A DNA stretch of 64,000 bases from an uncultured Acidobacteriota bacterium (GCA_963846425.1 CAWJVW010000005.1:2843732-2907731), one strand, 5' to 3'. Counted from the stretch's first letter, positions 5,370 through 62,670 are shown. Program-made: numbers and translations. The notes: generated by a model not told the origin, from the letters alone.

Positions 5370-5867
5370 ATGCCTGGCCGCCGTTACCCAAACGCCGCTG
5401 GATTCTCACTCGTGGAGGCACTGATCGCGTCCCTGCTCGCCGCATCAGCCATCGTCGGCCTGGCACACCTGGTGACGATGGCGGCGGAGCAGTCGCTTAC
5501 CAGCCGCCGCGCGGCGAGCGCGCTGACGATCGCTCAAGGCAAGCTCGAGCAGCTTCGACGATTGCCATTTTGGTACAGAAACGACGGAACGCGATTCACG
5601 AGCGCAGGTCTTGCGATCTCGCCTATGCAATCGATTCAGGAAGATACGTCGGGGTATGTCGAGTATCTGGACAGCTTTGGCGAAGTCGTTGCGCTGGACG
5701 GAAGTGTGGCACCTGATTTCGCGCGGCGCTGGTCTGTTTCGACCTTGGATTCAGGCGATTACGACACGTTGGTCCTGCATGTCTGTGTGTTTACGGTGCT
5801 CGGACCATCCGCACGCGGCGCGATGCCTGTGGCGTGCGCATCCGGAATTCGCACGAGGCAGCCGTGA
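5370..5867 (+). CDS. Prepilin-type N-terminal cleavage/methylation domain protein (PilV-like minor pilin/pseudopilin)
   Basis: Short basic leader ending in Gly, then FSLVEALIASLLAASAIVGL (class III signal, G|FSLVE). Confidence 0.8.
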   Translation: MPGRRYPNAAGFSLVEALIASLLAASAIVGLAHLVTMAAEQSLTSRRAASALTIAQGKLEQLRRLPFWYRNDGTRFTSAGLAISPMQSIQEDTSGYVEYLDSFGEVVALDGSVAPDFARRWSVSTLDSGDYDTLVLHVCVFTVLGPSARGAMPVACASGIRTRQP

Positions 5868-6997
5868 GCGATCGAGGGTTCACGTTGACCGAGCTACTGA
5901 TCGCGTGCCTGCTGCTCATGGCCGTGACGGCGGCCATTGCCGCACTTGCCGTGCCAGCTCGAAATGCATTCGATCGGACTCTGGGCGCTGCTGATCTCAG
6001 CGGGGGCAGTCGTGCGGCGCTCGAACGGATGATGCACGACGTGCGCGAGGCTGGCAGCAGTGCCGCGATCGAGGTTCGTCGCATCGGACTTGCCGATGTG
6101 ATGGCGACAGCCGTTCCGCTTGTCAGTCTCGATGATCCCAGCGTATCGGCGCCAGCCCGAGCTCTGAGAATTACGCGGATCGGTCTGGCGGCGCCACAAG
6201 GTGTCCTGAGTCAGACCGTCGGTGCTGGTGCAACGACGCTCCAACTCGACACGTCGCTGCGTTGCGCGAAGGTGGGTCTCGCGTGCGGTTTTGCGCCTGG
6301 CATGCCTGCTGTCATCTTCGATACGGCACGGTCCGCCACGGTTTCTATCGGGGCGATCGGCGTAGGAGGCTTCATCCAGCTGACATCGGGATTGCCGACG
6401 GGATTCGAACCGGGCGCCATCGTGGCTGCAATCGCCTCGGCGGCTTATGGGTTGCGGTCGAACGCCGATGGCAGTCAACGATTGGTGCGTATCTCGCCAG
6501 GCGGGGCCGAGCAACCCATCCTGCAGAATGTCGTCGATTTCGATGTGCACATCGAGGGTCGAAGTGCTGCGCCACAGCGTAGCGATGCAGCCGAACCGTG
6601 GCCGACCTACGGCCCGGCGCCGCCGGCACTGGACCAGGACGATCTTCGCGACGCATGGGGGGCAGGGGAGAACTGCACAATCGCGCGTGATGGAGAGGGG
6701 CAGCCGATTCCGCGACTTGCGACCCTTGCCTCAGATTCGGAGCCGGTGCCACTCACAACGGCGCTGATTACCGATGGGCCGTGGTGTGCCGACGTGTCGG
6801 ATTCTTCTCGATATGACGCTGACCTCCTGCGCGTCAGCGCGATCGAGGTGCGGCTCCGTGTGGAGGCCGCATCCGCCGTGCTGCGCGGTCCCGCGGGGCG
6901 GCTGTTCCGGCGACCCGGAACCGAGCGCAACGCCTCACGATGGGTGCCGGACGTCGAACTGCGACTGACGGTGAGGATTCGGAATGTTGTGCACTGA
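5864..6997 (+). CDS. Prepilin-type N-terminal domain protein (PilW-like minor pilin/pseudopilin)
   Basis: RG|FTLTELLIACLLLMAVTAAIAAL class III signal. GTG 5864 overlaps the upstream stop (GTGA); the alternative start is ATG 5834. Confidence 0.7.
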   Translation: MSDRGFTLTELLIACLLLMAVTAAIAALAVPARNAFDRTLGAADLSGGSRAALERMMHDVREAGSSAAIEVRRIGLADVMATAVPLVSLDDPSVSAPARALRITRIGLAAPQGVLSQTVGAGATTLQLDTSLRCAKVGLACGFAPGMPAVIFDTARSATVSIGAIGVGGFIQLTSGLPTGFEPGAIVAAIASAAYGLRSNADGSQRLVRISPGGAEQPILQNVVDFDVHIEGRSAAPQRSDAAEPWPTYGPAPPALDQDDLRDAWGAGENCTIARDGEGQPIPRLATLASDSEPVPLTTALITDGPWCADVSDSSRYDADLLRVSAIEVRLRVEAASAVLRGPAGRLFRRPGTERNASRWVPDVELRLTVRIRNVVH

Positions 6998-7694
6998 CCG
7001 TGGAATCGCGCTGATCGTGACGCTTTTGGCAATCAGCCTGTTCACCGCGCTGGGGCTCGGCCTTTCGCTGGCCTCGTCGGCTGCCCGCCTCGCAGACCAC
7101 AATCACGAGGACGCTGTGGCGCTGTTGAACGCGGCGGAATCTGCATTGGAGCTTGCGGCGCGCGACTTGTCAGCGATCGCCGACTGGAATCGTGTGCTGG
7201 ATGGGTCAGCACGATCGCCGGCGGTTGACGGTGTTCCGGGAGGCATTCGGACCATGCCGGCTGGCGGGAGTCTCGATCTCACTCGCCTCACGAATCAAGT
7301 GACGTGCGGTTCTGACACCCTGTGTTCGGACGCGCAGCGCGCAAGCAGCACTGCCGAGCGGCCGTGGGGCGCTGACAATCCGCGATGGGGCCTGTTCATG
7401 CACACCCCGCTCACGGCACTAAACAATGCGCGACTGCGCCAGGCCGTCTACATCATCGTCTGGATAGGCGATGATGCGGGAGAAACGGACGGTGATCCAG
7501 GTGTAGACGGCGGCAGTCCCGGCGGGGAAGGCCGACATGTGCTTCGAGCTCGCGCAGAGGCCTTTGGGGCAGATGGCGCCAGACGAGCAATTGAAGCGGA
7601 GCTTGTCCGTTTCTGTCGTCTCGAGGGAGTTGTCGAGATTTGCATGCCCGGCACCCGCGTGCGTTCCTGGCGCGTTGCCACGGCTGTCCCGTGA
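6984..7694 (+). CDS. PilX/GspK-like pseudopilin-associated protein
   Basis: N-terminus DRGIALIVTLLAISLFTALGLGL resembles the PilX_N/GspK-type hydrophobic segment (no Glu5). Overlaps the upstream gene by 14 nt. Confidence 0.55.
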   Translation: MLCTDRGIALIVTLLAISLFTALGLGLSLASSAARLADHNHEDAVALLNAAESALELAARDLSAIADWNRVLDGSARSPAVDGVPGGIRTMPAGGSLDLTRLTNQVTCGSDTLCSDAQRASSTAERPWGADNPRWGLFMHTPLTALNNARLRQAVYIIVWIGDDAGETDGDPGVDGGSPGGEGRHVLRARAEAFGADGARRAIEAELVRFCRLEGVVEICMPGTRVRSWRVATAVP

Positions 7695-9682: not shown

Positions 9683-10757
9683 TTCCGATCGCCTTCATTG
9701 CGCCTTTGAGCTCTTTGGTCGTGACGTCCTTGAGTGTCGTGGTTGCACCAATCGTCGTCGCCGCGATGAAGTGGAGCTCTCCCTCAACAATTTTCTTGTC
9801 GTGACCGATCGCGCCAACGAGATCTTTCGCCGACAGATCGACGACCGGCGGTAGGGGACCGAGCATTGCGATGAGATCAGCGACGCGCCGGTACGCATCA
9901 GCCGGCGTCACTCCACGGTTTGCGCCCAGCGCCATGGCTGCGAGGATCCCGTAGGCGACGGCTTCGCCGTGCAAGAATCGTCGATACCTGGTCACTGCCT
10001 CGATCGCATGTCCCACCGTGTGTCCAAAGTTCAGAACGCGTCGGATTCCGGACTCGCGCTCGTCGGCCGACACGATCTCGGCTTTGATGCGGCATGATTC
10101 CGCAACGACTGCAGTCATCGTGTCGAGATCGCGTCCGAATAGCGCGGGCAGGAATGCGCTTACGCGATCGAACAATGACGGGCTCGCAATGATCCCGTAC
10201 TTGATCACTTCATAGAGGCCGGCACGAAACTCGCGGCGCGGCAGCGTGGCGAGCACTGTCTGATCCGCGAGTACGAGGCAGGGCGCATGAAACGCGCCGA
10301 TCAGGTTCTTTCCGAGGGCATGATTCACGCCCGTCTTGCCGCCAACAGCACTGTCGACCTGGGCCATCAGCGTGGTGGGCACGTGCACGAGGCGCAAGCC
10401 ACGCAGATATGTCGCCGCTGCGAAGCCAACCATATCGCCAATTACGCCGCCACCGGCAGCAATCACAACCGTCGATCGATCGGCTCCCATCTGAATCAAG
10501 GAGTCGTAAATCCGTGCGACGGTGGCCGTCGTCTTGAAGCGTTCGCCGTCGGGCACGAGAATCGGTTGGCGTTCGGTCGACACCTTGCGGAACCGTCCGC
10601 CGTGCAGTTGCCACACGAGCGGGCTCGACACGAGCACGCGACGCGGTCCCAGTCCGGACTGATCGAGCAGACGTGGCAGCGTGGCCACACTGTCAGGGCC
10701 GATGATGATGGGATAGGAACCGGCTGCGGTTGTGACTTCGATACGAGTCGGCGGCAT
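9669..10757 (-). CDS. aroB: 3-dehydroquinate synthase
   Basis: GGGVIGDMVGFAAATYLRG and metal-binding HG/HAIE motifs. Start taken at ATG 10757 (MPPTRIEV...); the track ORF to 10904 is an over-extension. 14-nt convergent overlap with the regulator gene. Confidence 0.9.
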   Translation of the reverse strand: MPPTRIEVTTAAGSYPIIIGPDSVATLPRLLDQSGLGPRRVLVSSPLVWQLHGGRFRKVSTERQPILVPDGERFKTTATVARIYDSLIQMGADRSTVVIAAGGGVIGDMVGFAAATYLRGLRLVHVPTTLMAQVDSAVGGKTGVNHALGKNLIGAFHAPCLVLADQTVLATLPRREFRAGLYEVIKYGIIASPSLFDRVSAFLPALFGRDLDTMTAVVAESCRIKAEIVSADERESGIRRVLNFGHTVGHAIEAVTRYRRFLHGEAVAYGILAAMALGANRGVTPADAYRRVADLIAMLGPLPPVVDLSAKDLVGAIGHDKKIVEGELHFIAATTIGATTTLKDVTTKELKGAMKAIGIRKA

Positions 10758-22758: not shown

Positions 22759-22786
22759 GTATGTACCCCTAAAGGTGGGCAGCTTT

Positions 22787-23623
22787 ATGTACGCCAGCGC
22801 TCGAAAAATCACACAATTTGCCATGATCGCTGCGGTCGCCGCAGCTCTTGCGGCCTGCGACATCGCGGTTGATGGACACGGCGGCTTCGGCTTCGACTTG
22901 GCGGTTGGCAAGGCGCAGGACGAGTGGACGCGTACCTATAAGGTGGCCGCTGGTGGGCGGCTCGAGATCATCAACGTCAACGGCCGGATTTCGGCCGAAC
23001 CCTCCGAGGGGCCTGACATCGAAGTGCGGGCCGAACGCAGCGCCAAATCGCTGAGCGATGATCAGGCCCGGGAGCTGCTCGCGAAACTCGAAATGCGTGA
23101 AGAGGTGGGCCCCGACCGCGTCCGCGTCGAAGTCCGCGCCCCTCGCTTCAATGGCCCGTCAGGTCACGAGATCAAGTGGACGATCAAGGTTCCAAAGGGT
23201 GTGGCCGTCGATCTGCGCACCGTCAATGGTGGCGTCCACATGTCAGCGCTGCAGGGCGACATTCGCGCCCGCAGCACCAACGGTGGGATCGTCGGATCAG
23301 GCCTTGCGGCTTCGAGCGTGGATGCCTCCGTGACCAATGGCGGCGTGGAAATCGAGCTGGCAACGGCCCCCTCCAGCGGGACGTTCGATCTCGAGAGCGT
23401 CAACGGCGGCGTGACCCTTTCGCTGCCCGCAGCAAGCAAGGCTGACATCGCTGCACGCTGCGTCAATGGCGGCATCTCCGTCACAGGTCTCGACGTCGAA
23501 GTCATCGGTGAAAAGACCCGTCGTCGGCTGGACGGCAAACTGAATGGCGGTGGGGGAGCACGGGTGTCGATGGAAACTGTCAACGGCGGTGTGAAGATCG
23601 GGCGTTCTGGCGGGACTACGTAA
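22787..23623 (+). CDS. DUF4097-like (putative adhesin/toast-rack) lipoprotein
   Basis: Lipobox ALAAC. Repeated VNGG-I/V beta-strand motif (VNGRIS, VNGGVHM, TNGGIV, VNGGVTL, VNGGISV, VNGGVKI). ATG 22787 has a better RBS than GTG 22775. Confidence 0.7.
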   Translation: MYASARKITQFAMIAAVAAALAACDIAVDGHGGFGFDLAVGKAQDEWTRTYKVAAGGRLEIINVNGRISAEPSEGPDIEVRAERSAKSLSDDQARELLAKLEMREEVGPDRVRVEVRAPRFNGPSGHEIKWTIKVPKGVAVDLRTVNGGVHMSALQGDIRARSTNGGIVGSGLAASSVDASVTNGGVEIELATAPSSGTFDLESVNGGVTLSLPAASKADIAARCVNGGISVTGLDVEVIGEKTRRRLDGKLNGGGGARVSMETVNGGVKIGRSGGTT

Positions 23624-43117: not shown

Positions 43118-44671
43118 CTATTCTTTGCGGATCGTCACGAAATTCTGTTGACCATTCCTCAGAATCAGGAGAAATGCCGTCCCCCCGCTTGGCACCTGCG
43201 CGAGTGCGCGGCTGGCCTCCTGCGGCGAGGTCACGGGGCGACGATTGACCTGCAGAATGATGTCCCCGCGGCCAATGCCAGCCCGCTGAGCGGCGCTACC
43301 CACCTCGACATCGGACACCAACACGCCCTGGGTGTCAGGTGGCACGCGCAACCTCCGCGCCGTGTCCGCCGTCAACGCGCTGACTTCCATGCCGAATCCG
43401 GTTGTCTCTTCGATGTCCGGATCATCCGTACCGCTACGTGCGGTAACGCCAGCCTCACTTTCGAGATCCAGCTCATTGACGGTGACGGTCAGCGAACGTT
43501 CCTGTTTGTCGCGCAGCACCTTGATGGGGACTGACGATCCAGGTTTTGTCGCGACCACCATCGACACGAGCTGATCGCGGCGCTGTATTGGCTTGCCGTT
43601 GAATTCGATGATTACGTCGCCGGGTTCGAGGCCTGCTTTGTCAGCTGGGCCGCCGCTGTTCACGCTTCCCACGAGCGCGCCACGGCGTTCCTTGAGACCG
43701 AATTCTGCCAGCGCGCTCAACGGCACGTCCTGGACGGTCACGCCAATGACTCCGCGTGTGATCTTGCCGCCCCGCAACTGCGGAAGCAGATCGCGCACAA
43801 CGTTGATCGGAATCGCGAACCCGATGCCGAGGTTGCCTTGCTGACGCGAATCCGAATAAATGGCCGTGTTGATCCCGACGACCTCGCCGCGCACGTTCAG
43901 GAGCGGTCCGCCGGAGTTGCCCGGATTGATGGCCGCGTCCGTTTGAATCACGTCTGCCCACCGGCCCGTGCTGACGGGCAGGCCACCGGGACGTGCGGCG
44001 CTGACCACGCCCACGCTGACCGTATGGGCGAGATTAAATGGATTGCCGATGGCCATCACCCAATCGCCAGGGGCGATCTGCGCAGAGTCGCCGAACTTGA
44101 CTTCCGCAAGCGCGGTCTTCGGCTTCTCGGTGAGCTCGATGAGCGCGCTGTCGGTCAGCGGATCTCGCCCGACAACCTTCGCCTGGTAGCTGATTTCCTC
44201 GTCCCCGTACATGAAGACCTCGATTTTGGTCGCGCCTTCGACGACGTGGTTGTTGGTGAGGATGTAGCCATCCTTGCTGATGATGAAACCGGTGCCGGCG
44301 GCAACGGCAACCTGCTCGCGCGGCCGCTGCTGTTGGCCTTGGCCCTGGCCCTGGCCTCGGCCAGGCTGGCCGCCGAAAAAGCGCTCGAAGAGGTCATCAC
44401 CGCCGAAAAACTCCGTGAGCTCTGTGGCGCGCTGACGCGATTCGGTGCGGATGTTGACGACCGATGGGCTCACGACCTTGGCGATGTTGCGAAAGGTGCT
44501 CGCGTCAACGGGCCCGCTCAGCGGCGCGCTGTTGGTCGCTGGTGCGGAGATGGCCTGCTGCGCCATCGAAGGCGGCGACAGGTCGAGACGCGACGCGATC
44601 ACCATCCCGACGGCCAGCGATGCCACACCAATCAGCAGCCCGTAGAACACCGTCGTTTTACGACTAGACAT
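43118..44671 (-). CDS. HtrA/DegP/DegQ-family periplasmic serine protease with two PDZ domains
   Basis: Catalytic triad context (TNNHVV, DSALIEL, GNSGGPLL). Two PDZ segments. N-terminal TM/signal anchor. Confidence 0.9.
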   Translation of the reverse strand: MSSRKTTVFYGLLIGVASLAVGMVIASRLDLSPPSMAQQAISAPATNSAPLSGPVDASTFRNIAKVVSPSVVNIRTESRQRATELTEFFGGDDLFERFFGGQPGRGQGQGQGQQQRPREQVAVAAGTGFIISKDGYILTNNHVVEGATKIEVFMYGDEEISYQAKVVGRDPLTDSALIELTEKPKTALAEVKFGDSAQIAPGDWVMAIGNPFNLAHTVSVGVVSAARPGGLPVSTGRWADVIQTDAAINPGNSGGPLLNVRGEVVGINTAIYSDSRQQGNLGIGFAIPINVVRDLLPQLRGGKITRGVIGVTVQDVPLSALAEFGLKERRGALVGSVNSGGPADKAGLEPGDVIIEFNGKPIQRRDQLVSMVVATKPGSSVPIKVLRDKQERSLTVTVNELDLESEAGVTARSGTDDPDIEETTGFGMEVSALTADTARRLRVPPDTQGVLVSDVEVGSAAQRAGIGRGDIILQVNRRPVTSPQEASRALAQVPSGGTAFLLILRNGQQNFVTIRKE

Positions 44672-44684
44672 TGACGTCCTCCAG

Positions 44685-45866
44685 CTAGATCAACGAGACG
44701 ATTTCCTTCTGGCGTGGCCCGGTCACTTCGGGTCCGGACTTGCCCCAGACCATATTGATTTCCGTCCGCACACCAAAGCGTTCGAAATAGATGCCCGGCT
44801 CGATCGTGAAGCCGGTCCCGGGCAAGAGCCGGCGTTCGTCGTGTGTTTCGTAGTCGTCCAGATGCGCGCCATTGCCGTGCACGGTCTCGCCCAGGCTATG
44901 CCCGGTGCGATGCAGGATGTAGTCCCCGTAACCAGCGGCTTGGATCACTGCGCGCGCCGCACGGTCGAGCTCGAAGCCGCGAACTTCGCGGTCCTCTCGC
45001 GCAGCACCCTCCACGACGACGACAGCCGCGTCGCGCGCATCCCGTACCGCAGCAAACGCCTTGGACATTTCATCAGGCACCTGACGGCCTGTAAACCCTA
45101 CCCACGTGATGTCGGCAAACACGGCGCCCGGTCTGTCGAGCTTCCCCCATAGGTCCAGGAGCAACAATTCATCCGGCCGCACTGTGCGGCTGCGTCGCTC
45201 GCTGGGAAGATAATGGGGATTCCCGGCATTTTCCTGAGCGGACACGTTGGGGGCCGAATCGCTAACCAGCCCTTCCTCTGCAAACCACTGCCACATCAAC
45301 TGTTGCAAATCGAATTCCGTCGTCGGCACGCTGTCTTTCAAGCGCTTTGCCGCCGCCTCAAAGGCTTGGTCCTTCACACGGTACAGTTTCTCGGCTGCTT
45401 GATAGTGCGACGAGATGGCCTCGTCGCTCCAGTGCGCCTCGAACTGCTGAATCAGATCCCCGGACGACACAACGTCGACGCCTTGTGCCCGCACCAGTTC
45501 GATCGTGCCCGCATCGACCCGAGATACGTACGGGATCGCGCCCTTGGGCGAGTATTCCATCGCGATGCGACGAGTCCCCGACAGCAATGTTTTCAGCCCC
45601 GATTCCAACTGCGCTCGCCCCGCGTAAGGGTTCTTCTGACCCGGCAATCGATCGAGGTTGTGCCGCTCGATCGCGTGCACCAGCCCGCGAGGCTCGCCCG
45701 AGGCCGGAATAAGGTAGAACCACCGCCGGGAGGCGAGATGGTGCCCGCCCCCGAGGCCTGCCAGACGTTGTGCAATGGGATTGGCGCCCTGAAAATCGTA
45801 CCAAAGCCAGCCATCCAGCCCTTGTTCGCGAAGTGCCTGCTGGACGGCGGCGACGTCAACGGCCAT
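44685..45866 (-). CDS. M24 family metallopeptidase (Xaa-Pro aminopeptidase-like)
   Basis: Pita-bread fold motifs (DITWVGF, HRTGHSLG, GFTIEPGIY). Confidence 0.85.
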   Translation of the reverse strand: MAVDVAAVQQALREQGLDGWLWYDFQGANPIAQRLAGLGGGHHLASRRWFYLIPASGEPRGLVHAIERHNLDRLPGQKNPYAGRAQLESGLKTLLSGTRRIAMEYSPKGAIPYVSRVDAGTIELVRAQGVDVVSSGDLIQQFEAHWSDEAISSHYQAAEKLYRVKDQAFEAAAKRLKDSVPTTEFDLQQLMWQWFAEEGLVSDSAPNVSAQENAGNPHYLPSERRSRTVRPDELLLLDLWGKLDRPGAVFADITWVGFTGRQVPDEMSKAFAAVRDARDAAVVVVEGAAREDREVRGFELDRAARAVIQAAGYGDYILHRTGHSLGETVHGNGAHLDDYETHDERRLLPGTGFTIEPGIYFERFGVRTEINMVWGKSGPEVTGPRQKEIVSLI

Positions 45867-45996
45867 AGTCCTTCAGTATAGCGAGGTGCCGCCCTCTGAG
45901 CTTGCCCAAGCAGCGACCAGGGGCATTTGCACCACTATTGGGTTCGACGTCGAAGTCGTCGGCAAAGTTTGTGCCCATGTTAAGGATTCGCAAAAC

Positions 45997-46419
45997 ATGG
46001 CTTACCGTTTCTTCGACCACACCGGTGACATCGGAGTAACGCTGACGGGGAAGACCCGCGAGGCGCTGTTTGCCTCCGCCGCAATTGCGTTCACCGACAC
46101 CCTTACAGCGGTTTCCAATGTCGAACCGCGTCGGCCTGAAGAGGTGGCTCTAGACGCCCCAGAGCTCGATCTGTTGCTCGTAGACTTTCTGAGTGAGCTG
46201 CTGTATCGGTTCGACACGCGCGGATGGCTGTCCCGGGATGCTCAAGTTGACGTGCGTGAGCGTGATGGTGGCTGGGCCCTCGAGGGCACCTTGAGCGGTG
46301 AGAAACTCGATCCAGAGCGGCACAAGGTCAAGATTCTGATCAAGGCGGTCACGTATCACGGTCTGCACGTGATTGAACGCAATGGAGAATGGCACGCGAA
46401 CGTCGTGTTCGATGTCTAA
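45997..46419 (+). CDS. Archease (RtcB activator)
   Basis: Start ATG 45997: MAYRFFDHTGDIGVTL (FDHTaDiG motif), 140 aa, directly upstream of rtcB. Confidence 0.85.
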   Translation: MAYRFFDHTGDIGVTLTGKTREALFASAAIAFTDTLTAVSNVEPRRPEEVALDAPELDLLLVDFLSELLYRFDTRGWLSRDAQVDVRERDGGWALEGTLSGEKLDPERHKVKILIKAVTYHGLHVIERNGEWHANVVFDV

Positions 46420-46452
46420 ATCGCCAAAGCCTCTGAGGCGCATTCTTGCTAT

Positions 46453-47907
46453 ATGAAACTCCAGCAAATCGATCCTTATCGCTGGCGCATCCCTCGTGAA
46501 GGGAAGATGCTCGTCGAGGGGATCGTCTATGCCGACGCGTCGATGATGGCGGATCTTCGCGAGGATCAAGCGCTGCAGCAGGTGGCCAACGTCGCGCACC
46601 TGCCGGGGATCGTCAGGGCCTCGATGGCGATGCCCGATATCCATTGGGGTTACGGGTTTCCCATCGGCGGCGTTGCGGCGATGGATGCCGAGGACGGCGT
46701 CGTCTCGCCGGGTGGCGTCGGTTACGACATCAATTGAGGAGTACGGCTGGTCGGCTCAGGTCTGAGCCGCACGGACGTGTTACCGCGGCTCCGCGAGATC
46801 GTGAATGCGATGTACGCGCGAGTCCCGACTGGTGTCGGCGCTCACCGGCGCGACCTTCGCCTGTCGCGGGACGACCTCACTCACGTGTTGCAAGGCGGGG
46901 CCGCTTGGGCCATCGATCGCGGATTCGGAGCGCCGAGTGACCTCGACTACATTGAGGAACGCGGCGCGCTGCCCGGGGCCGATCCCGCATTGGTATCGGA
47001 TCGCGCGTACGAGCGCGGTTACTCACAGTTGGGAACGCTCGGCTCGGGGAATCACTTCGTCGAGCTGCAATACGTCTCCGAGATTTACGACGAGGTGGTT
47101 GCCGCGGCGTTCGGCTTGAGGCTCGATCAGGTGACGGCGATGATTCACAGTGGCTCGCGTGGGCTTGGGCATCAAGTCTGCGAGGATCACCTGCGGATCA
47201 TGATCAGGGCCTCGCAAACTTACGGCATCGAGTTGCCGGATCGTCAACTGTGTTGTGCACCGCTGAAGTCCCACGAGGGCCGCCAGTATCTCGCGGCGAT
47301 GAGCGCAGCGGCCAACTACGCCTTTGCAAATCGGCAGGTGATGGCGCATTGGGTGCGTGAGTCGATTTCCGATGCGCTCGGGATGACGTCTGAGGCGACT
47401 GGCATTCGGACCGTTTACGACGTTTGTCACAACATCGCCAAGTTTGAGGAGTTTCCGAGCGCCCGGGTCAAAGGCGGGTCTTCTCACGCGTCGACGCTTT
47501 GCGTTCATCGCAAGGGCGCGACGCGCGCATATCCGCCAAATCACCCGCAGGTTCCAGCTGCCTATCGGCCAGTCGGGCAGCCCGTCCTGATCCCCGGCGA
47601 CATGGGCCGCTACTCGTACGTGCTGGTTGGAACCGAACTGGCGTTCTACGAAACGTTTGGCTCGAGTTGCCACGGCGCGGGGCGGCGATGGAGCCGGTCA
47701 CACGCGAAGCGCCAGGCAAAAGGGCATGCCGTCGTGAAGGATCTCGCGGCACGGGGTGTTGTCGTGAAGGCCGCAGGCCTCGCGACCCTCGCCGAGGAAA
47801 TGCCCGACGCCTACAAAGACGTCGCTGACGTCGTCCGCATCGTTCACGAGGCGGGGTTGGCGCGACGTGTCGCGCAACTGCGGCCCATGGGGGTGATCAA
47901 GGGGTAA
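46453..47907 (+). CDS. rtcB: RNA 3'-phosphate ligase RtcB with in-frame TGA (46735-46737) at the conserved metal-binding Cys: candidate selenoprotein, or internal-stop pseudogene
   Basis: Track ORFs 46453-46737 and 46777-47907 are in the same frame. Read-through gives ...PGGVGYDIN[TGA]GVRLVGSG...VPTGVG..., matching the RtcB motif GxDINCGVRL. Total 484 codons, the normal RtcB length. Confidence 0.85.
46741..46780 (+). promoter_or_regulatory. Putative bacterial SECIS stem-loop downstream of the rtcB UGA
   Basis: Upper stem C52-G69..A58-U63 (CGGCUCA/UGAGCCG) closing loop GGUC (46759-46762). Bulged U 46751. Lower interrupted stem pairs 46742-46750 with 46770-46779. Apex CAGGUCUG is identical to the E. 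coli fdhF SECIS apex as I recall it. Confidence 0.55.
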
Positions 47908-47935
47908 AAGAACTGCGGTTACGTGGATGCCGTCT

Positions 47936-47941
47936 TATAAT
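47936..47941 (+). promoter_or_regulatory. Perfect TATAAT -10-like hexamer upstream of the VWA gene
   Basis: TATAAT in a GC-rich spacer, 38 nt before ATG 47980. No convincing -35. Confidence 0.25.
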
Positions 47942-47979
47942 GTGAGGTTGGCCAGCACCAGCTGATTGTCCGTAACCCT

Positions 47980-50529
47980 ATGAAACAAAACATTTTTGTA
48001 CTGTTGCTTGCGTCGCTTCTCTCAGGCGCGGTGACACTCACCGGCCAGGGAGCGCAGACGCCGCCTTCCGAACCCCAGGCGCAGCCGGGAGTGACGTTCC
48101 GCGCCGAGGTCAATTATGTCGAGGTGGATGCGCGCGTCCTTGACGCTCAAGGCAAGTTCGTCCCCGGTCTTGGGCAGAGCGACTTCCAGGTCCTCGAGGA
48201 CGGCAAGCCGCAACAGATCACCATCTTCTCGTTGGTCAATCTGCCCGTCGAGCGCGCCACGCGACCGCTGTTTGCGAGCAAGCCAATCGAACCCGATGTG
48301 CAGACGAACCTGGCAGGGTACAACGGCCGCGTGTACCTGATCGTGTTGGATGACTCGCATACGCATGCTTTGCGCTCTGCGCGGGTGCGGCGGGCGGCGC
48401 ATGAGTTCATCGAGCGCCATATGGGCGCGAACGACGTTGCCGCAATCGTGCATACGAGCGGACGCGCTGACGCCGCGCAGGAGTTCACCAGCAATCAGCG
48501 GCTGCTGTTGAACGCGGTGGACAAATTCATGGGGCGGAAGCTGCGCTCCTCGTTGATGAACCGCTTGGAGGAAGAGTCGAGAACACGCGGGACTCGGAGC
48601 GCCGGCGAACGCATCAACGATCCCGACACCCTCGAACGCGGCTATCACGCGCGCAACACGCTCGAGTCGCTCAAAAACTTTGCCGACATCATGGCGGGCG
48701 TGCGCGGCCGCCGCAAGGCGCTTGTGTATTTCAGCGAAGGCGTGGACTACGACATCAACGATCCCTTCAACAACCGCGATGCGACCGACATTCTCGACCG
48801 TACGCGCGAGCTCATCGCCGCCGCAACGCGAGCGAACGTATCCATTTACGGGATGGACGTTCGGGGCTTGGGTGCGGGAACCGACGACGCAATCGAAATT
48901 CAGTCGTTCCCTGATGACCCGACGCTTGGTCTGACCTCCAGCGCGCTGAACGACGAAGTGCGGATGGGGCAGGACAGCCTGCGCGTCCTATCCGACGAGA
49001 CCGGTGGTTTTGCCACGGTCAACAACAACGATATCGCAGGTGCGTTCACCAGGCTGGTCGAGGAAAACAGCTCGTACTACGTGCTGGGGTATTACGCGTC
49101 CAATGAACGGCGCGACGGACGTTTTCGGAAGATCGAAGTGCGGGTTAACAAGCCAGGCCTCACCGTGCGCGCGCGTCGTGGCTACTTTGCACCTCGCGGC
49201 CGCGTCCAGGAGGCCAAGCTCAGTGGACCCGGTGAGGCCTCTGCCGAACTGCGCGAGGCGATGAGCAGCCCGGTGCCCGTCAGCGGATTACCGCTCGCGA
49301 CAACCGCCAGCGTCTTCAAGGGCCCCGACCGCAATGGATCAGTCGTGGTCTCCACGCTGATCGGCGGCAGGGATTTGCCGCTCGTCGAACGAGACGGCAC
49401 GTTCCGCAACGATCTCGAAGTGGTATTTCTGGCTGTCGATGCGAAGGGCAAGACCTTCCCGGGCGACCGGAATACGCTGAACCTTCAACTCAAACCTGAT
49501 TCGGTGGCCCGCGTGCGCAACGCGGGCTTCAGGGTCATATCTTCGCTGGAACTGCCGCCGGGGCGCTACCAGCTGCGCGTGGCGGCGCGAGAGGCGAACA
49601 GTCGCCGCTCCGGTCTGGTGCTCCACGATTTCGAGGTGCCGGACTTCGCCAAGGAAACATTGTCGATTAGCAGCATTGCACTGACGTCGATGGCGAGCAG
49701 CCTGGTGCCGACGGCACGTCCGAAAGATCCGCTGGTCAAGCTGATGCCTGGCCCGCTGTCTACGTATCGCGACTTCGGGCAGAACGACGAGCTCGCACTT
49801 TTTACCGAGGTGTACGAGGCCGGCGGCGGTCCCGCGCACAAGGTTGAAATCAACCTGACGATGAAGGCAGAGGGTGGGCAGACGGTCTTCCAGACGCGCG
49901 AAGAACGCGACAGCAGCGAGCTCGGTGGATCGAGCGGCGGCTACGGTTTCTCTGCGAAGGTGCCGCTTCGGGATCTGTCTCCGGGGCTCTACGTGCTTCG
50001 CGTAGAGGCGCAGTCACGAGTCGGCGATCGACCAGCCGTGTTCCGCGAAACGATTGTCAATGTCGTGGCCGCGCCGCCCGGAACGGAGGCGCCGGCCGCG
50101 CCGCGACCTTCAGTGGGAAAGCCCGTGCCGCCGCAGGCGACACCACCAGCGCCTGCCGGTCGGACCGTTTCTATGACCCCCATCAACAGCGACAGGATGA
50201 GCGGCATCGATCGAGCGCAGCAGACCGTGGTGCGCACCGACGAGGAGTGGCGCACCTTGTGGCAGCAGCACGCAGCCGGCCGCCCGGTGCCTGCAGTCGA
50301 TTTCAAACAGAACATGGTGCTTGCCGTGTTTCTGGGCAGCCGCCCGTCAGGTGGATATGGCGTGGCAATAACTGGCGTACGGTCCGAGGCCGGCGGCCTC
50401 GTTGTCGAATGGGCGGAAACCCGTCCTGCGCCCGGCACGTCGGCGGTAACCGTCATGACGGCGCCGTCGCACCTGGTTTCGGTGCCGCGCCAGGACGGTC
50501 CTGTACGATTCGAGAAGGTGGAGCGCTAG
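47980..50529 (+). CDS. VWA domain protein (acidobacterial VWFA-related N-terminus) fused to a C-terminal PrcB_C-like domain
   Basis: Signal peptide. FRAEVNYVEVDARVLDAQGKFVPGLGQSDFQVLEDGKPQ N-terminal module. VWA core with MIDAS-like DDSHTH. C-terminal ...TDEEWRTLWQQH...VDFKQNMVLAVFLGSRPSGGYGVAI... resembles PrcB_C (from memory). Confidence 0.8.
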   Translation: MKQNIFVLLLASLLSGAVTLTGQGAQTPPSEPQAQPGVTFRAEVNYVEVDARVLDAQGKFVPGLGQSDFQVLEDGKPQQITIFSLVNLPVERATRPLFASKPIEPDVQTNLAGYNGRVYLIVLDDSHTHALRSARVRRAAHEFIERHMGANDVAAIVHTSGRADAAQEFTSNQRLLLNAVDKFMGRKLRSSLMNRLEEESRTRGTRSAGERINDPDTLERGYHARNTLESLKNFADIMAGVRGRRKALVYFSEGVDYDINDPFNNRDATDILDRTRELIAAATRANVSIYGMDVRGLGAGTDDAIEIQSFPDDPTLGLTSSALNDEVRMGQDSLRVLSDETGGFATVNNNDIAGAFTRLVEENSSYYVLGYYASNERRDGRFRKIEVRVNKPGLTVRARRGYFAPRGRVQEAKLSGPGEASAELREAMSSPVPVSGLPLATTASVFKGPDRNGSVVVSTLIGGRDLPLVERDGTFRNDLEVVFLAVDAKGKTFPGDRNTLNLQLKPDSVARVRNAGFRVISSLELPPGRYQLRVAAREANSRRSGLVLHDFEVPDFAKETLSISSIALTSMASSLVPTARPKDPLVKLMPGPLSTYRDFGQNDELALFTEVYEAGGGPAHKVEINLTMKAEGGQTVFQTREERDSSELGGSSGGYGFSAKVPLRDLSPGLYVLRVEAQSRVGDRPAVFRETIVNVVAAPPGTEAPAAPRPSVGKPVPPQATPPAPAGRTVSMTPINSDRMSGIDRAQQTVVRTDEEWRTLWQQHAAGRPVPAVDFKQNMVLAVFLGSRPSGGYGVAITGVRSEAGGLVVEWAETRPAPGTSAVTVMTAPSHLVSVPRQDGPVRFEKVER

Positions 50530-58525: not shown

Positions 58526-59263
58526 TCAGCGGCCGGCAACGAGTTGACTCAGCAGTGGGACGCTGCGGCCGTTGACTTCGCTGTACCGGTAACGCATCGT
58601 GAACGTCGACTCGCCAACCATCTTCACGTCTGCGCATGACTCGATGGCGGTGGGCAAGGCAACCCCGGCAAATCTGCCGTAGTGTTTGATGATGGTGACG
58701 GACTTCACCCAGAACGAGGGTGATTTTGCGAGCCTGCCTTCGAGACGCAGCGGATAGCCATCCGCGCTCACCGTCAAGGTCCCATCGATCAGCCTCGAAT
58801 CGGATCGCCGTGGCTTGAGCTGGATCTGCAGGTCGCCGACCCGCGCGCCGGGCAACGCGTGAAACTCATAGTTCTCGAGTGTCAAGGCCGCCGCTTCCTG
58901 TGAGCCGTCGCGCCACGACGCCGCTTCACTTTGCAGCAGCTCACGAAAGATCTTGTTGCGGGTGCGTTCGGACCCGCCTTCTTCGATCACATTCCACGTG
59001 AAGGCGCCGGATGGACTCAGCATCGTTTCAACCTCCATCCATCCCTGATGCTTGCCGCTGCGTGTGCCAGCCCGCAATTCACGAATGGCGCGAACCGCGA
59101 CCGCTTCGCGGCCCGTCAGCGCGATGACACGTTGTATTAGCTCTTGTGCCGAGGCATCCGCCGCGTCGAGATTTGCGTTCAACGTGGAAGCTAGCCCGAC
59201 CATCGCCACCACGCACAGCGCGGCAACCTTTGGCGGATTACACGATGTCGTCAGGCTTTCCAC
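58526..59263 (-). CDS. Hypothetical secreted protein (possibly LolA-like fold)
   Basis: Start set to GTG 59263 to give signal peptide ...KVAALCVVAMVGLASTLNA and avoid overlap with the divergent BON gene. Family assignment is tentative. Confidence 0.45.
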   Translation of the reverse strand: MESLTTSCNPPKVAALCVVAMVGLASTLNANLDAADASAQELIQRVIALTGREAVAVRAIRELRAGTRSGKHQGWMEVETMLSPSGAFTWNVIEEGGSERTRNKIFRELLQSEAASWRDGSQEAAALTLENYEFHALPGARVGDLQIQLKPRRSDSRLIDGTLTVSADGYPLRLEGRLAKSPSFWVKSVTIIKHYGRFAGVALPTAIESCADVKMVGESTFTMRYRYSEVNGRSVPLLSQLVAGR

Positions 59264-59368
59264 GCGATTGATGTATGGCAAGACACGCGCCAATGAACGT
59301 GTGGTCGCGCTTGGCACCTTTTTGGCACGCCCACGCACGTGGCAACACGGGAAATACTCAGCTTGTGT

Positions 59369-59722
59369 ATGAGAGCAACACGGTGGGCGATCGCAGCGCT
59401 CATCGCTTCTGCCATGACTGCAATCGGCTGTGCGTCGCCGATTGAAGAGGTTAGAGATCCCGCCATGCGGGTTCCCATCGTTTCCGACGACAGCCTTGTG
59501 CACGCCTTGGATACGAGCGTGGAAATGCGCGCGGTGGACCGACTCGAGTTGGACACCCTGCTTCGCGACCGCGAGATCTACATCGATGTCGTCGATGGCG
59601 TGGTGGTTATCGTTGGCGAAGTGTGGACACCCCTTGAGAAAGAACGCGTGGGGAACCTCGTGCGGAGCGTGGCGGGGATGATCGATGTCGTCAACGAACT
59701 CGATGTCCGACCGCCAATGTGA
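59369..59722 (+). CDS. BON domain lipoprotein
   Basis: Lipobox MTAIGC. BON-like ...IDVVDGVVVIVGEVWTPLEKERVGNLVRSVAGMIDVVNEL. Confidence 0.7.
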   Translation: MRATRWAIAALIASAMTAIGCASPIEEVRDPAMRVPIVSDDSLVHALDTSVEMRAVDRLELDTLLRDREIYIDVVDGVVVIVGEVWTPLEKERVGNLVRSVAGMIDVVNELDVRPPM

Positions 59723-61714: not shown

Positions 61715-61821
61715 CCGCCTACGCCATCGCTTCGGATTGACACGGTCTTCGGTCCCGCGACATCATCGCCATCGCATATTCCTCGCTTTGGGTGAGCCCC
61801 CCACGCGAACTGGAGGATGTT

Positions 61822-62670
61822 ATGCGGTCAGCCGGTTGTGTCGGCCTCGTTCTGCTCGTTTCCGTTCTCTGCAGTAGCCCCGTGGAGGCGGCGGCGCCCT
61901 ACGGACTCACCTTCGGCATGTCGGGACAGTTCGTTTCATTGCGGTGGCAAGGCGACGGCTCGACGTGGCTTCTCGAAGCCGGTTCAGCCTCGGGATTGTC
62001 CGACCTGGTGCGGCAACCGGTCGTCTCGACCACGCGACTGCTGTCGTTCGCTAACGTGCCTCCCGGCACGTACTACGTTCGGGTTCGTGCGCTGGTCAAT
62101 GGAGTGCCGAGTGCACCGACCAACGAAGTCGTAATCAAGGTCGTATGCACCATTGGAGAACTTGATTTGCGCTCAACGAAGAGTGGTCTGAACGTCCAGT
62201 TCAACTGGTCGCCGATCGGCGTTGTCCCCGCACTCCAAGTGGAGGTCGGGAGCGCGCCGGGACTCAGCAATCTTGCGGTTGTGCCGCTCCCCACCTTCCC
62301 GACGCAATTGATCGCCACTGGAGCCCCCGGCACCTACTACGTCCGCGTCCGCGGCAAGAGCGGTTGTGGCTTCGGACAACCGTCAAACGAGGTTCGTCTC
62401 GATCTGGGTTCCTCGAGTCATTGCGTGCCCACGCTCTCGCCATTCAATCGAAATGTCAGTTTCTCGGGAGTCTACACTGTCAGCGTTTCGGTCTCGGGCG
62501 GCTGCGCCTGGACTGTCTTCACACGGGATACGGGATGGATTACACCCATCACGCTGAATGGAGTCGGCTCCGGGACCATTTCCTACCGCGTCACCTTACC
62601 TGGAGGGGGGACAGGTCAGATCTATGTGACGACCTCGAGCGGCCGGTACTACGTGAACGTCACATCGTAG
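61822..62670 (+). CDS. Secreted protein with two FN3/Ig-like repeats and a C-terminal Ig-like (BACON-like?) domain
   Basis: GGAGGA RBS, signal peptide. Internal duplication (...GSASGLSDL...PPGTYYVRVRA...PSAPTNEV / ...GSAPGLSNL...APGTYYVRVRG...GQPSNEV). Confidence 0.6.
   Translation: MRSAGCVGLVLLVSVLCSSPVEAAAPYGLTFGMSGQFVSLRWQGDGSTWLLEAGSASGLSDLVRQPVVSTTRLLSFANVPPGTYYVRVRALVNGVPSAPTNEVVIKVVCTIGELDLRSTKSGLNVQFNWSPIGVVPALQVEVGSAPGLSNLAVVPLPTFPTQLIATGAPGTYYVRVRGKSGCGFGQPSNEVRLDLGSSSHCVPTLSPFNRNVSFSGVYTVSVSVSGGCAWTVFTRDTGWITPITLNGVGSGTISYRVTLPGGGTGQIYVTTSSGRYYVNVTS

Follow-up and report, generated by a model that had tools for sequence, protein, structure and literature searches.

What is an in-frame stop codon doing at the position of the cysteine that holds both metal ions of an RNA ligase? 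The question arises in a 64,000-nucleotide (nt) stretch of DNA from an uncultured Acidobacteriota bacterium (GCA_963846425.1, CAWJVW010000005.1:2843732-2907731; hereafter the window, with positions counted from its first letter), where the gene for the ligase RtcB (rtcB, 46453-47907, plus strand) is interrupted once, by a TGA at 46735-46737. Based on the alignment of this codon with the metal-ligand cysteine, on an RNA hairpin that follows it and on the conservation of both across bacterial phyla, we consider it very likely that the UGA, codon 94 of the gene, encodes selenocysteine (Sec). The same had been proposed for this locus as a candidate in an earlier note on the window, and those of the checks suggested there that were carried out all spoke for it.

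The gene comprises 484 codons including the UGA, which is read through to a TAA stop, and translation of 46453-47907 gives an RtcB frame that is continuous except for this one internal stop, just as the earlier note had described. The translated product aligns over residues 3-484 with both T. thermophilus TTHA1785 (PDB 2epg; E 1.5e-181) and P. horikoshii RtcB (1uc2/4dwq; E 1.5e-161), and in both alignments the stop at 46735-46737 falls in the Cys column of the signature 'ydinCgvrl'. The P. horikoshii residue, Cys98, ligates both Mn2+ ions, Mn1 being held by Cys98, His234 and His329 and Mn2 by Asp95, Cys98 and His203 (PMC10630183), which agrees with what the note had stated of Cys98 and the nearby Asp95. 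The proposed Sec codon, U94, occupies the column of this bridging cysteine. The remaining metal ligands are intact (D91 and the histidines of GNHF, SGSRGLGH and CHN), and the guanylyl-histidine motif SSCHGAGR is retained. Both halves of the gene match PF01139, membership of the RtcB domain family extends over the full length, and the RtcB models of NCBIfam are matched with scores under the cut-offs of narrower sub-family models. Directly upstream, as had been noted before, lies the gene for the RtcB activator archease (45997-46419, plus strand, 140 amino acids (aa); NF001617, E 1.1e-32; PF01951 in the gene table of the related contig L003), separated from rtcB by 33 nt. A scan of the window found no TGA-split gene other than rtcB.

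The UGA is followed by a hairpin resembling a selenocysteine insertion sequence (SECIS). Its core, present in both the minimum-energy and the centroid structure computed with RNAfold, spans 46752-46769 (plus strand) and consists of a 7-bp stem, CGGCUCA/UGAGCCG, closed by a GGUC loop (46759-46762) at +25 to +28 counted from the U of UGA; stem and loop are exactly those that had been predicted. The overall shape turned out to be different from the one proposed. Instead of a structure of about 40 nt starting 5 nt past the UGA, the well-supported span is +13 to +40 (46747-46774, plus strand), and instead of a bulged U on the 5' side, the minimum-energy fold has a 2x2 internal loop (G16 U17 / C36 A37) under the core stem. 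Below this loop a lower helix of 3 bp (C13-G40, U14-G39, G15-C38) is predicted, which is less certain than the core stem. The predicted energy of the segment from +11 to +45 is -15.5 kcal/mol. A published model of bacterial SECIS elements (bSECIS; PMC13188914) specifies a loop of 3-9 nt, an upper stem of 4-16 bp, a spacing of 16-37 nt and a minimum free energy of -7.5 kcal/mol or lower, and further asks for a G within the first two loop positions. The window hairpin passes on all four criteria, having a 4-nt loop that begins with GG, 7 bp, a spacing of 21 nt, which the note had likewise placed within the bacterial range, and -10.6 kcal/mol. Moreover, synonymous recodings of this peptide fold far less stably (-5.7 +/- 2.5 kcal/mol) than the local hairpin itself (-13.0 kcal/mol; p = 0.01).

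One explanation of an isolated stop codon would be a mistake in sequencing or assembly, with TGC or TGT as the real codon. The window does resemble a long-read metagenome assembly, and two assemblies disagree by an indel in a neighbouring gene. Yet the same TGA is found in short-read and long-read assemblies of different samples: in a farmland-soil contig (L001, from ENA HeB_farmland) with 97.5% nt identity to the window, in a 3.33-Mb contig of another assembly (L003, ENA contig_5182) that is 99.97% identical to it, and in a Logan assembly. It also recurs in hundreds of independent assemblies, as described below. We regard the probability of an error at this codon as negligible. The reading frame, in turn, bears the marks of a functional gene. 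Between the window and L001, rtcB differs at 36 positions, of which only 13 are nonsynonymous (neutral expectation: P ~1e-6), and none lies between the TGA and +55. The ratio of nonsynonymous to synonymous substitution rates (dN/dS) between the window and four Sec-type orthologues is 0.13-0.17 upstream and downstream of the TGA, and comparisons of Sec-type with Cys-type genes give similar values (0.09-0.12). In other words, purifying selection acts on rtcB both before and after the TGA, and the gene is free of further lesions, so that the accumulation of damage which the earlier note had named as a sign of decay is not seen.

How often does this TGA occur elsewhere? We scanned for the degenerate DNA pattern GGNTWYGAYATHAAYTGAGGNGTNMG, which corresponds to G-[YF]-D-I-N-TGA-G-V-R and for which a handful of chance matches would be expected at its information content. 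The scan returned at least 120 metagenome contigs from JGI and at least 120 species-representative genomes from GTDB. The complete chromosomes OZ252293.1, OZ245365.1 and CP070669.1 are among the carriers of a Sec-type rtcB. Among the matches listed are Thermodesulfobacteriota, Nitrospirota (including Ca. Magnetobacterium casense MYR-1), Acidobacteriota (Vicinamibacterales, Thermoanaerobaculia and others), Binatia, Eisenbacteria, Gemmatimonadales (Gemmatimonadota), Planctomycetota and metagenome-assembled genomes of Polyangiaceae. All matches listed are RtcB frames, open, where the contig permits, for about 100 aa before and about 383 aa past the TGA, and the listed Sec-type proteins are 49-80% identical to the window RtcB. 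In 150 of 186 Sec-type loci, the gene just before rtcB on the same strand is archease. In viral contigs the pattern scan found no TGA-type match and a single Cys-type one, and for this reason viral contigs are unusable as controls. Extra frame disruptions downstream of the TGA are present in 4 of 240 Sec-type loci (L010, L162, L189 and L191); three are frameshifts and one is a masked or N gap (L189), and beyond these disruptions RtcB resumes in another frame. These look like assembly indels or masking rather than decay.

The recurrence bears directly on two other explanations. According to the first, a nonsense mutation has killed rtcB and the hairpin is an incidental structure of GC-rich DNA. 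Gene callers do treat the locus in this way: a mechanical listing of open reading frames (ORFs) in the window breaks rtcB into pieces of 94 and 376 aa, and the gene calls of L001 and L003 give two fragments, 94 aa plus 365 or 376 aa. The fold energy of the region as a whole is also unremarkable, and no Sec machinery was found in the window or in related loci. However, a dead gene would not be expected to keep its TGA and an intact frame in at least 240 loci of several phyla, with additional disruptions confined to the four loci just mentioned, nor to display dN/dS of about 0.15 on both sides of the stop, a rejection of neutrality between the window and L001, and selection at synonymous sites that keeps the hairpin. 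A pseudogene is therefore very improbable. The second explanation, that ribosomes terminate at the UGA and initiate again further on (e.g. at GTG 46777 or ATG 46810), producing two polypeptides that assemble without the bridging cysteine, is in our judgement just as hard to sustain. Downstream start codons do exist in the window, but across loci no start codon is kept in register past the TGA. Restarting would also forfeit the conserved G-V-R-L... segment that immediately follows the TGA in every locus, the residue lost would be an essential metal ligand, and the hairpin, with its SelB-type GGU loop, lies at SECIS distance.

The sequences following the TGA of Sec-type rtcB genes fall into three structural classes. 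The commonest class (n=128), the window's own, is built on an invariant GCUCA-GGUY-UGAGC core in which 90.7% of the cells are paired, as opposed to 25-44% when the partner strand is slid. Since the stem is invariant, support for this class rests on conservation and codon bias. Relative to the class consensus, the window has a GC-to-CG swap at +18/+19, which turns the bulged stem into a perfect 7-bp one. In the long-hairpin class (Nitrospirota type, n=46), RNAalifold gave only a trivial 4-pair structure for the alignment, and we therefore counted pairs explicitly on the named structure. Here 85.5% of the cells are paired versus 41-59% with the partner slid, double changes occur in 10 of 16 pairs, none of 500 shuffles was as good, and the comparison with synonymous recodings gives z = -4.1. 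In the third class, a short one in register 54 with a 5-nt GGUCU loop (n=35), double changes occur in 6 of 8 pairs and 95.7% of the cells are paired, a figure that is partly circular because the set was chosen on pairing at 5 of the 8 pairs. Taken together, the short classes have a mean energy of -9.65 kcal/mol versus -4.34 kcal/mol for recodings (mean z = -2.4).

Codon choice within the hairpin tells the same story. The loop glycine is encoded by GGT in 84 of 109 sequences, with 17.3 expected from each gene's own usage, and the stem serine by TCA in 82 of 122, with 14.4 expected; since the sequences are related, binomial P values make this bias look more significant than it is. Most short-class sequences retain U27, which falls at a synonymous site. 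A bulge-free version of the bSECIS test, as applied here, is passed by 79 of 231 Sec sequences and by 87 of 1155 codon-order shuffles, and it under-calls the commonest hairpin type, whose stem has a bulged C. The hairpin is maintained by selection at synonymous sites. As to whether hairpin pairs covary among relatives, a check proposed in the note, two of the three classes provide examples and the hairpin itself is conserved; in the window's own class covariation is nil.

The alternation between TGA and Cys codons that the note had proposed to look for at this column is also observed. Cys is found in each of the 119 full-length homologues nearest to the window protein and in 119 of the 120 nearest to a Thermodesulfovibrio Sec-type protein, whereas TGA occupies the column in at least 240 other loci; Sec (U) is annotated in none of the closest relatives of either protein. 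A rough neighbour-joining tree built from 149 Sec and 110 Cys forms implies, under parsimony, at least 23 Sec/Cys switches. No significant hairpin (z from +0.76 to -1.59) is seen in four syntenic Cys orthologues that share about 70-81% identity with the window; one of them (L245:3001-4425) keeps only the flanks GTCGGCTC...AGCCG. In two Cys-type genes with TGC or TGT that are 94% and 90% identical to Sec genes (L248:1001-2446 and L249:1001-2437), the hairpin is intact. The absence of the hairpin from Cys orthologues, considered as a control, is thus only partly true: distant orthologues are without it and the closest ones have it. We interpret the hairpins of close Cys-type genes as probable fossil SECIS elements left behind by repeated and recent replacement of Sec by Cys, and not as a sign that the hairpin lacks a function.

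Several observations weigh against Sec in RtcB. To begin with, the evidence is drawn from nucleotide sequence. Neither selA, selB, selD nor tRNA-Sec was found in the 64-kb window by tRNA, Rfam and Pfam annotation, and no Sec machinery was detected in 1.5 Mb of related loci by ARAGORN and by searches for SelA, SelD and SelB motifs. No Rfam SECIS family matched at the gathering score or at E <= 10, the bacterial SECIS content of Rfam being unchecked. Of the comparisons with controls suggested by the note, the one with dinucleotide shuffles showed the energy of the whole 61-nt region to be unremarkable (z = -0.76), while the local hairpin stood out from its recodings and satisfied the bSECIS model; because the DNA is GC-rich, the shuffle test is uninformative, and synonymous-recoding tests were used in its place. 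The nil covariation in the window's own class, the circularity in the register-54 class and the presence of the hairpin in two Cys-type genes point in the same direction. Finally, P. horikoshii RtcB engineered to carry C98U cleaved itself spontaneously (PMC4150793), which means that the enzyme does not trivially accept Sec here.

The failure to find the machinery leaves room for a further explanation, namely that the UGA is read through as an amino acid other than Sec, either by near-cognate decoding as Trp or Cys or by leaky read-through in a lineage devoid of Sec. Soil Acidobacteriota are also outside the selenoprotein-rich groups. On the other hand, many window genes end in TGA, so TGA is a normal stop here, and the conserved SECIS-like hairpin with its loop codon bias would go unexplained without SelB. 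Lineages that drop Sec appear to move to TGC or TGT by a single change, and with such an easy escape available, long-term retention of TGA without Sec is unlikely. All in all, we find non-Sec read-through improbable, if a shade less so than a pseudogene or a split enzyme. As for Sec decoding itself, one Sec-rtcB carrier offers indirect support. A 13.4-kb metagenome contig (L016) has, about 8 kb away from its Sec-type rtcB, a gene for a DsbA/DsbG-like thioredoxin-fold lipoprotein (L016:9977-10591, minus strand) with a TGA at 10415-10417 in a U-P-H-C active-site motif. The best NCBIfam match of this gene is NF041057, '(seleno)lipoprotein' (E 1.6e-25, under the model cutoff), its Pfam Thioredoxin_4 domain spans the TGA, and the DsbG-like family is listed among known selenoproteins in a 2026 inventory. 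It would thus appear, indirectly, that this carrier decodes Sec. The carrier phyla are known Sec users. A loose scan of the loci for other TGA genes yielded 955 candidates, mostly spurious, and the L016 DsbG-like gene was the only one to pass the motif and composition filters.

How would Sec be inserted, and what might it do in RtcB? During decoding of the UGA the hairpin located 21 nt past it, with its 7-bp stem and GGUC loop, would act as a bacterial SECIS and recruit SelB-GTP-Sec-tRNA(Sec), resulting in the insertion of Sec in place of termination. This would yield a full-length RNA ligase for 3'-phosphate/5'-OH ends, with a selenolate in place of the thiolate that bridges the two Mn2+ ions where guanylylation and ligation take place; its activator archease is presumably expressed alongside it. 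The [NiFeSe] hydrogenases suggest, by analogy, that the benefit could be a selenolate ligand resistant to irreversible over-oxidation, and perhaps a tuned metal affinity; coupling of the RtcB supply to selenium status might be an additional advantage.

The closest parallel for the RNA element is E. coli fdhF, in which, as in the window, an in-frame UGA is accompanied by a hairpin in the coding region, with the apex 8-mer CAGGUCUG and a GGUC loop, and Sec serves in place of a metal ligand. The note had drawn this comparison and called the two apices identical. The fdhF SECIS sequence concerned, TGACACGGCCCATCGGTTGCAGGTCTGCACC..., does match fdhF with at least 99% identity in 5413 E. coli records (100% in three listed), and it has the 8-mer CAGGTCTG in common with the window, so the claim was accurate. 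The fdhF-type GGUC apical loop with exposed G and U is present in the window; the lone bulged U beneath a short upper stem and a loop position of +22 to +25 are not. Unlike in fdhF, the upper stem of the window has 7 bp and a 2x2 internal loop, and the loop at +25 to +28 is one codon (3 nt) farther from the UGA. The proteins differ as well, RtcB being a GTP-dependent RNA ligase with binuclear Mn2+ and the fdhF product an oxidoreductase with Mo. Judging by these features, the window hairpin is predicted to work like the fdhF SECIS without being a copy of it.

On the protein side, the window RtcB shares family, length, histidine ligands, GMP-His motif and archease partner with Cys-type enzymes (PH1602, TTHA1785 and human RTCB), and differs in having UGA as the codon at the position of their bridging cysteine (Cys98 / C122). 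The engineered P. horikoshii U98 protein (Haruna et al. 2014, PMC4150793) has Sec at exactly the same position. It is, however, an artificial construct, UAG-directed, EF-Tu-dependent, made without a SECIS and self-cleaving, whereas the natural genes are conserved and their products presumably stable. [NiFeSe] hydrogenases resemble the proposed Sec-RtcB in having Sec for Cys on a catalytic metal, where the proposed benefit is a shield from irreversible oxidation; these and similar enzymes perform redox chemistry, whereas RtcB catalyses nucleotidyl transfer and phosphodiester formation. The active-site cysteine of metazoan RTCB is prone to metal-induced oxidative inactivation, against which PYROXD1 and thioredoxin protect it. 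Sec-RtcB might address the same weakness by a changed ligand atom rather than by a separate protein.

We found no sign that a natural Sec-containing RtcB has been described. A May 2026 review of 119 prokaryotic selenoprotein families includes neither RtcB nor any other RNA ligase, so the note was right to place RtcB outside the classical families. RtcB goes unmentioned in the deep-Sep paper and in its supplements, no selenoprotein model for RtcB exists in NCBIfam release 20, and RtcB reviews of 2023 and 2026 contain no word starting with 'selen'. Full-text literature on RtcB or splicing ligase together with selenocysteine returned only the engineered U98, and a report elsewhere in the literature is possible. 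While both the mechanism (UGA, in-frame SECIS and SelB) and the RtcB family are well known, their combination appears to be unreported, and RtcB looks like a selenoprotein family missing from current catalogues.

To our knowledge, nearly all selenoproteins described so far are oxidoreductases. Sec in a GTP-dependent RNA ligase would extend the use of selenium to RNA repair, tRNA processing and a binuclear Mn site. The active-site cysteine is the weak point of RtcB under oxidative, metal-catalysed stress, an active question in the RtcB field, and natural Sec/Cys pairs with 90-94% identity, such as L238/L248 and L240/L249, offer material for questions about oxidation resistance and about metal or nucleoside triphosphate specificity. 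On balance, we favour a broader picture, in which Sec-RtcB would be widespread and uncatalogued and would represent the first selenoenzyme with a non-redox reaction on nucleic acids and with Se bridging binuclear Mn2+; Sec would be ancestral in several clades and repeatedly replaced by Cys, leaving fossil SECIS elements, and the selenolate would be an alternative to protection of the PYROXD1 type. On the practical side, at least 240 other genomes or contigs may be mis-annotated as L001 and L003 are, with a split gene, or with a pseudogene, and catalogues of selenoproteins and rules for their annotation, NCBIfam and BSepDB among them, would have to take up an additional entry.

A few further observations concern rtcB and its surroundings. 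The best NCBIfam match at rtcB is NF038162, a model of intein-containing RtcB. The P. horikoshii intein sits exactly at Cys98, the +1 extein residue (PMC4150793); together with the proposed Sec recoding, this would make one residue the favoured site of two uncommon kinds of genetic change, intein insertion and Sec recoding. The order of genes for an HtrA-like protein, an M24 peptidase (minus strand), archease, RtcB and a PrcB_C protein is kept in the window (44685-50529) and in L002, L245, L246 and L247, and this synteny is present in both Sec-type and Cys-type Acidobacteriota. The PrcB_C protein encoded downstream of rtcB (47980-50529, 849 aa) varies between 257 and 851 aa in length among relatives. 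The HtrA-like protease (Trypsin and PDZ domains; window 43118-44671, minus strand) is a single ORF of 517 aa, and its counterpart in L003 (L003:6667-8219) is called as two overlapping genes of 364 and 171 aa; the one-gap difference probably reflects an indel error from long reads in one assembly or the other. Elsewhere the window has the gene content of a core chromosome, with genes for SMC, ProRS, TatC, PNPase, TruB, IF-2, NusA, RimP, HtrA and others, and its tRNA content is one tRNA-Leu. Its closest homologues indicate Acidobacteriota and bear Vicinamibacterales-like names. Several sizeable ORFs of 165-387 aa, within 5370-7694, 22775-23623, 58526-59503 and 61792-62670, have no Pfam match at E <= 1e-5.

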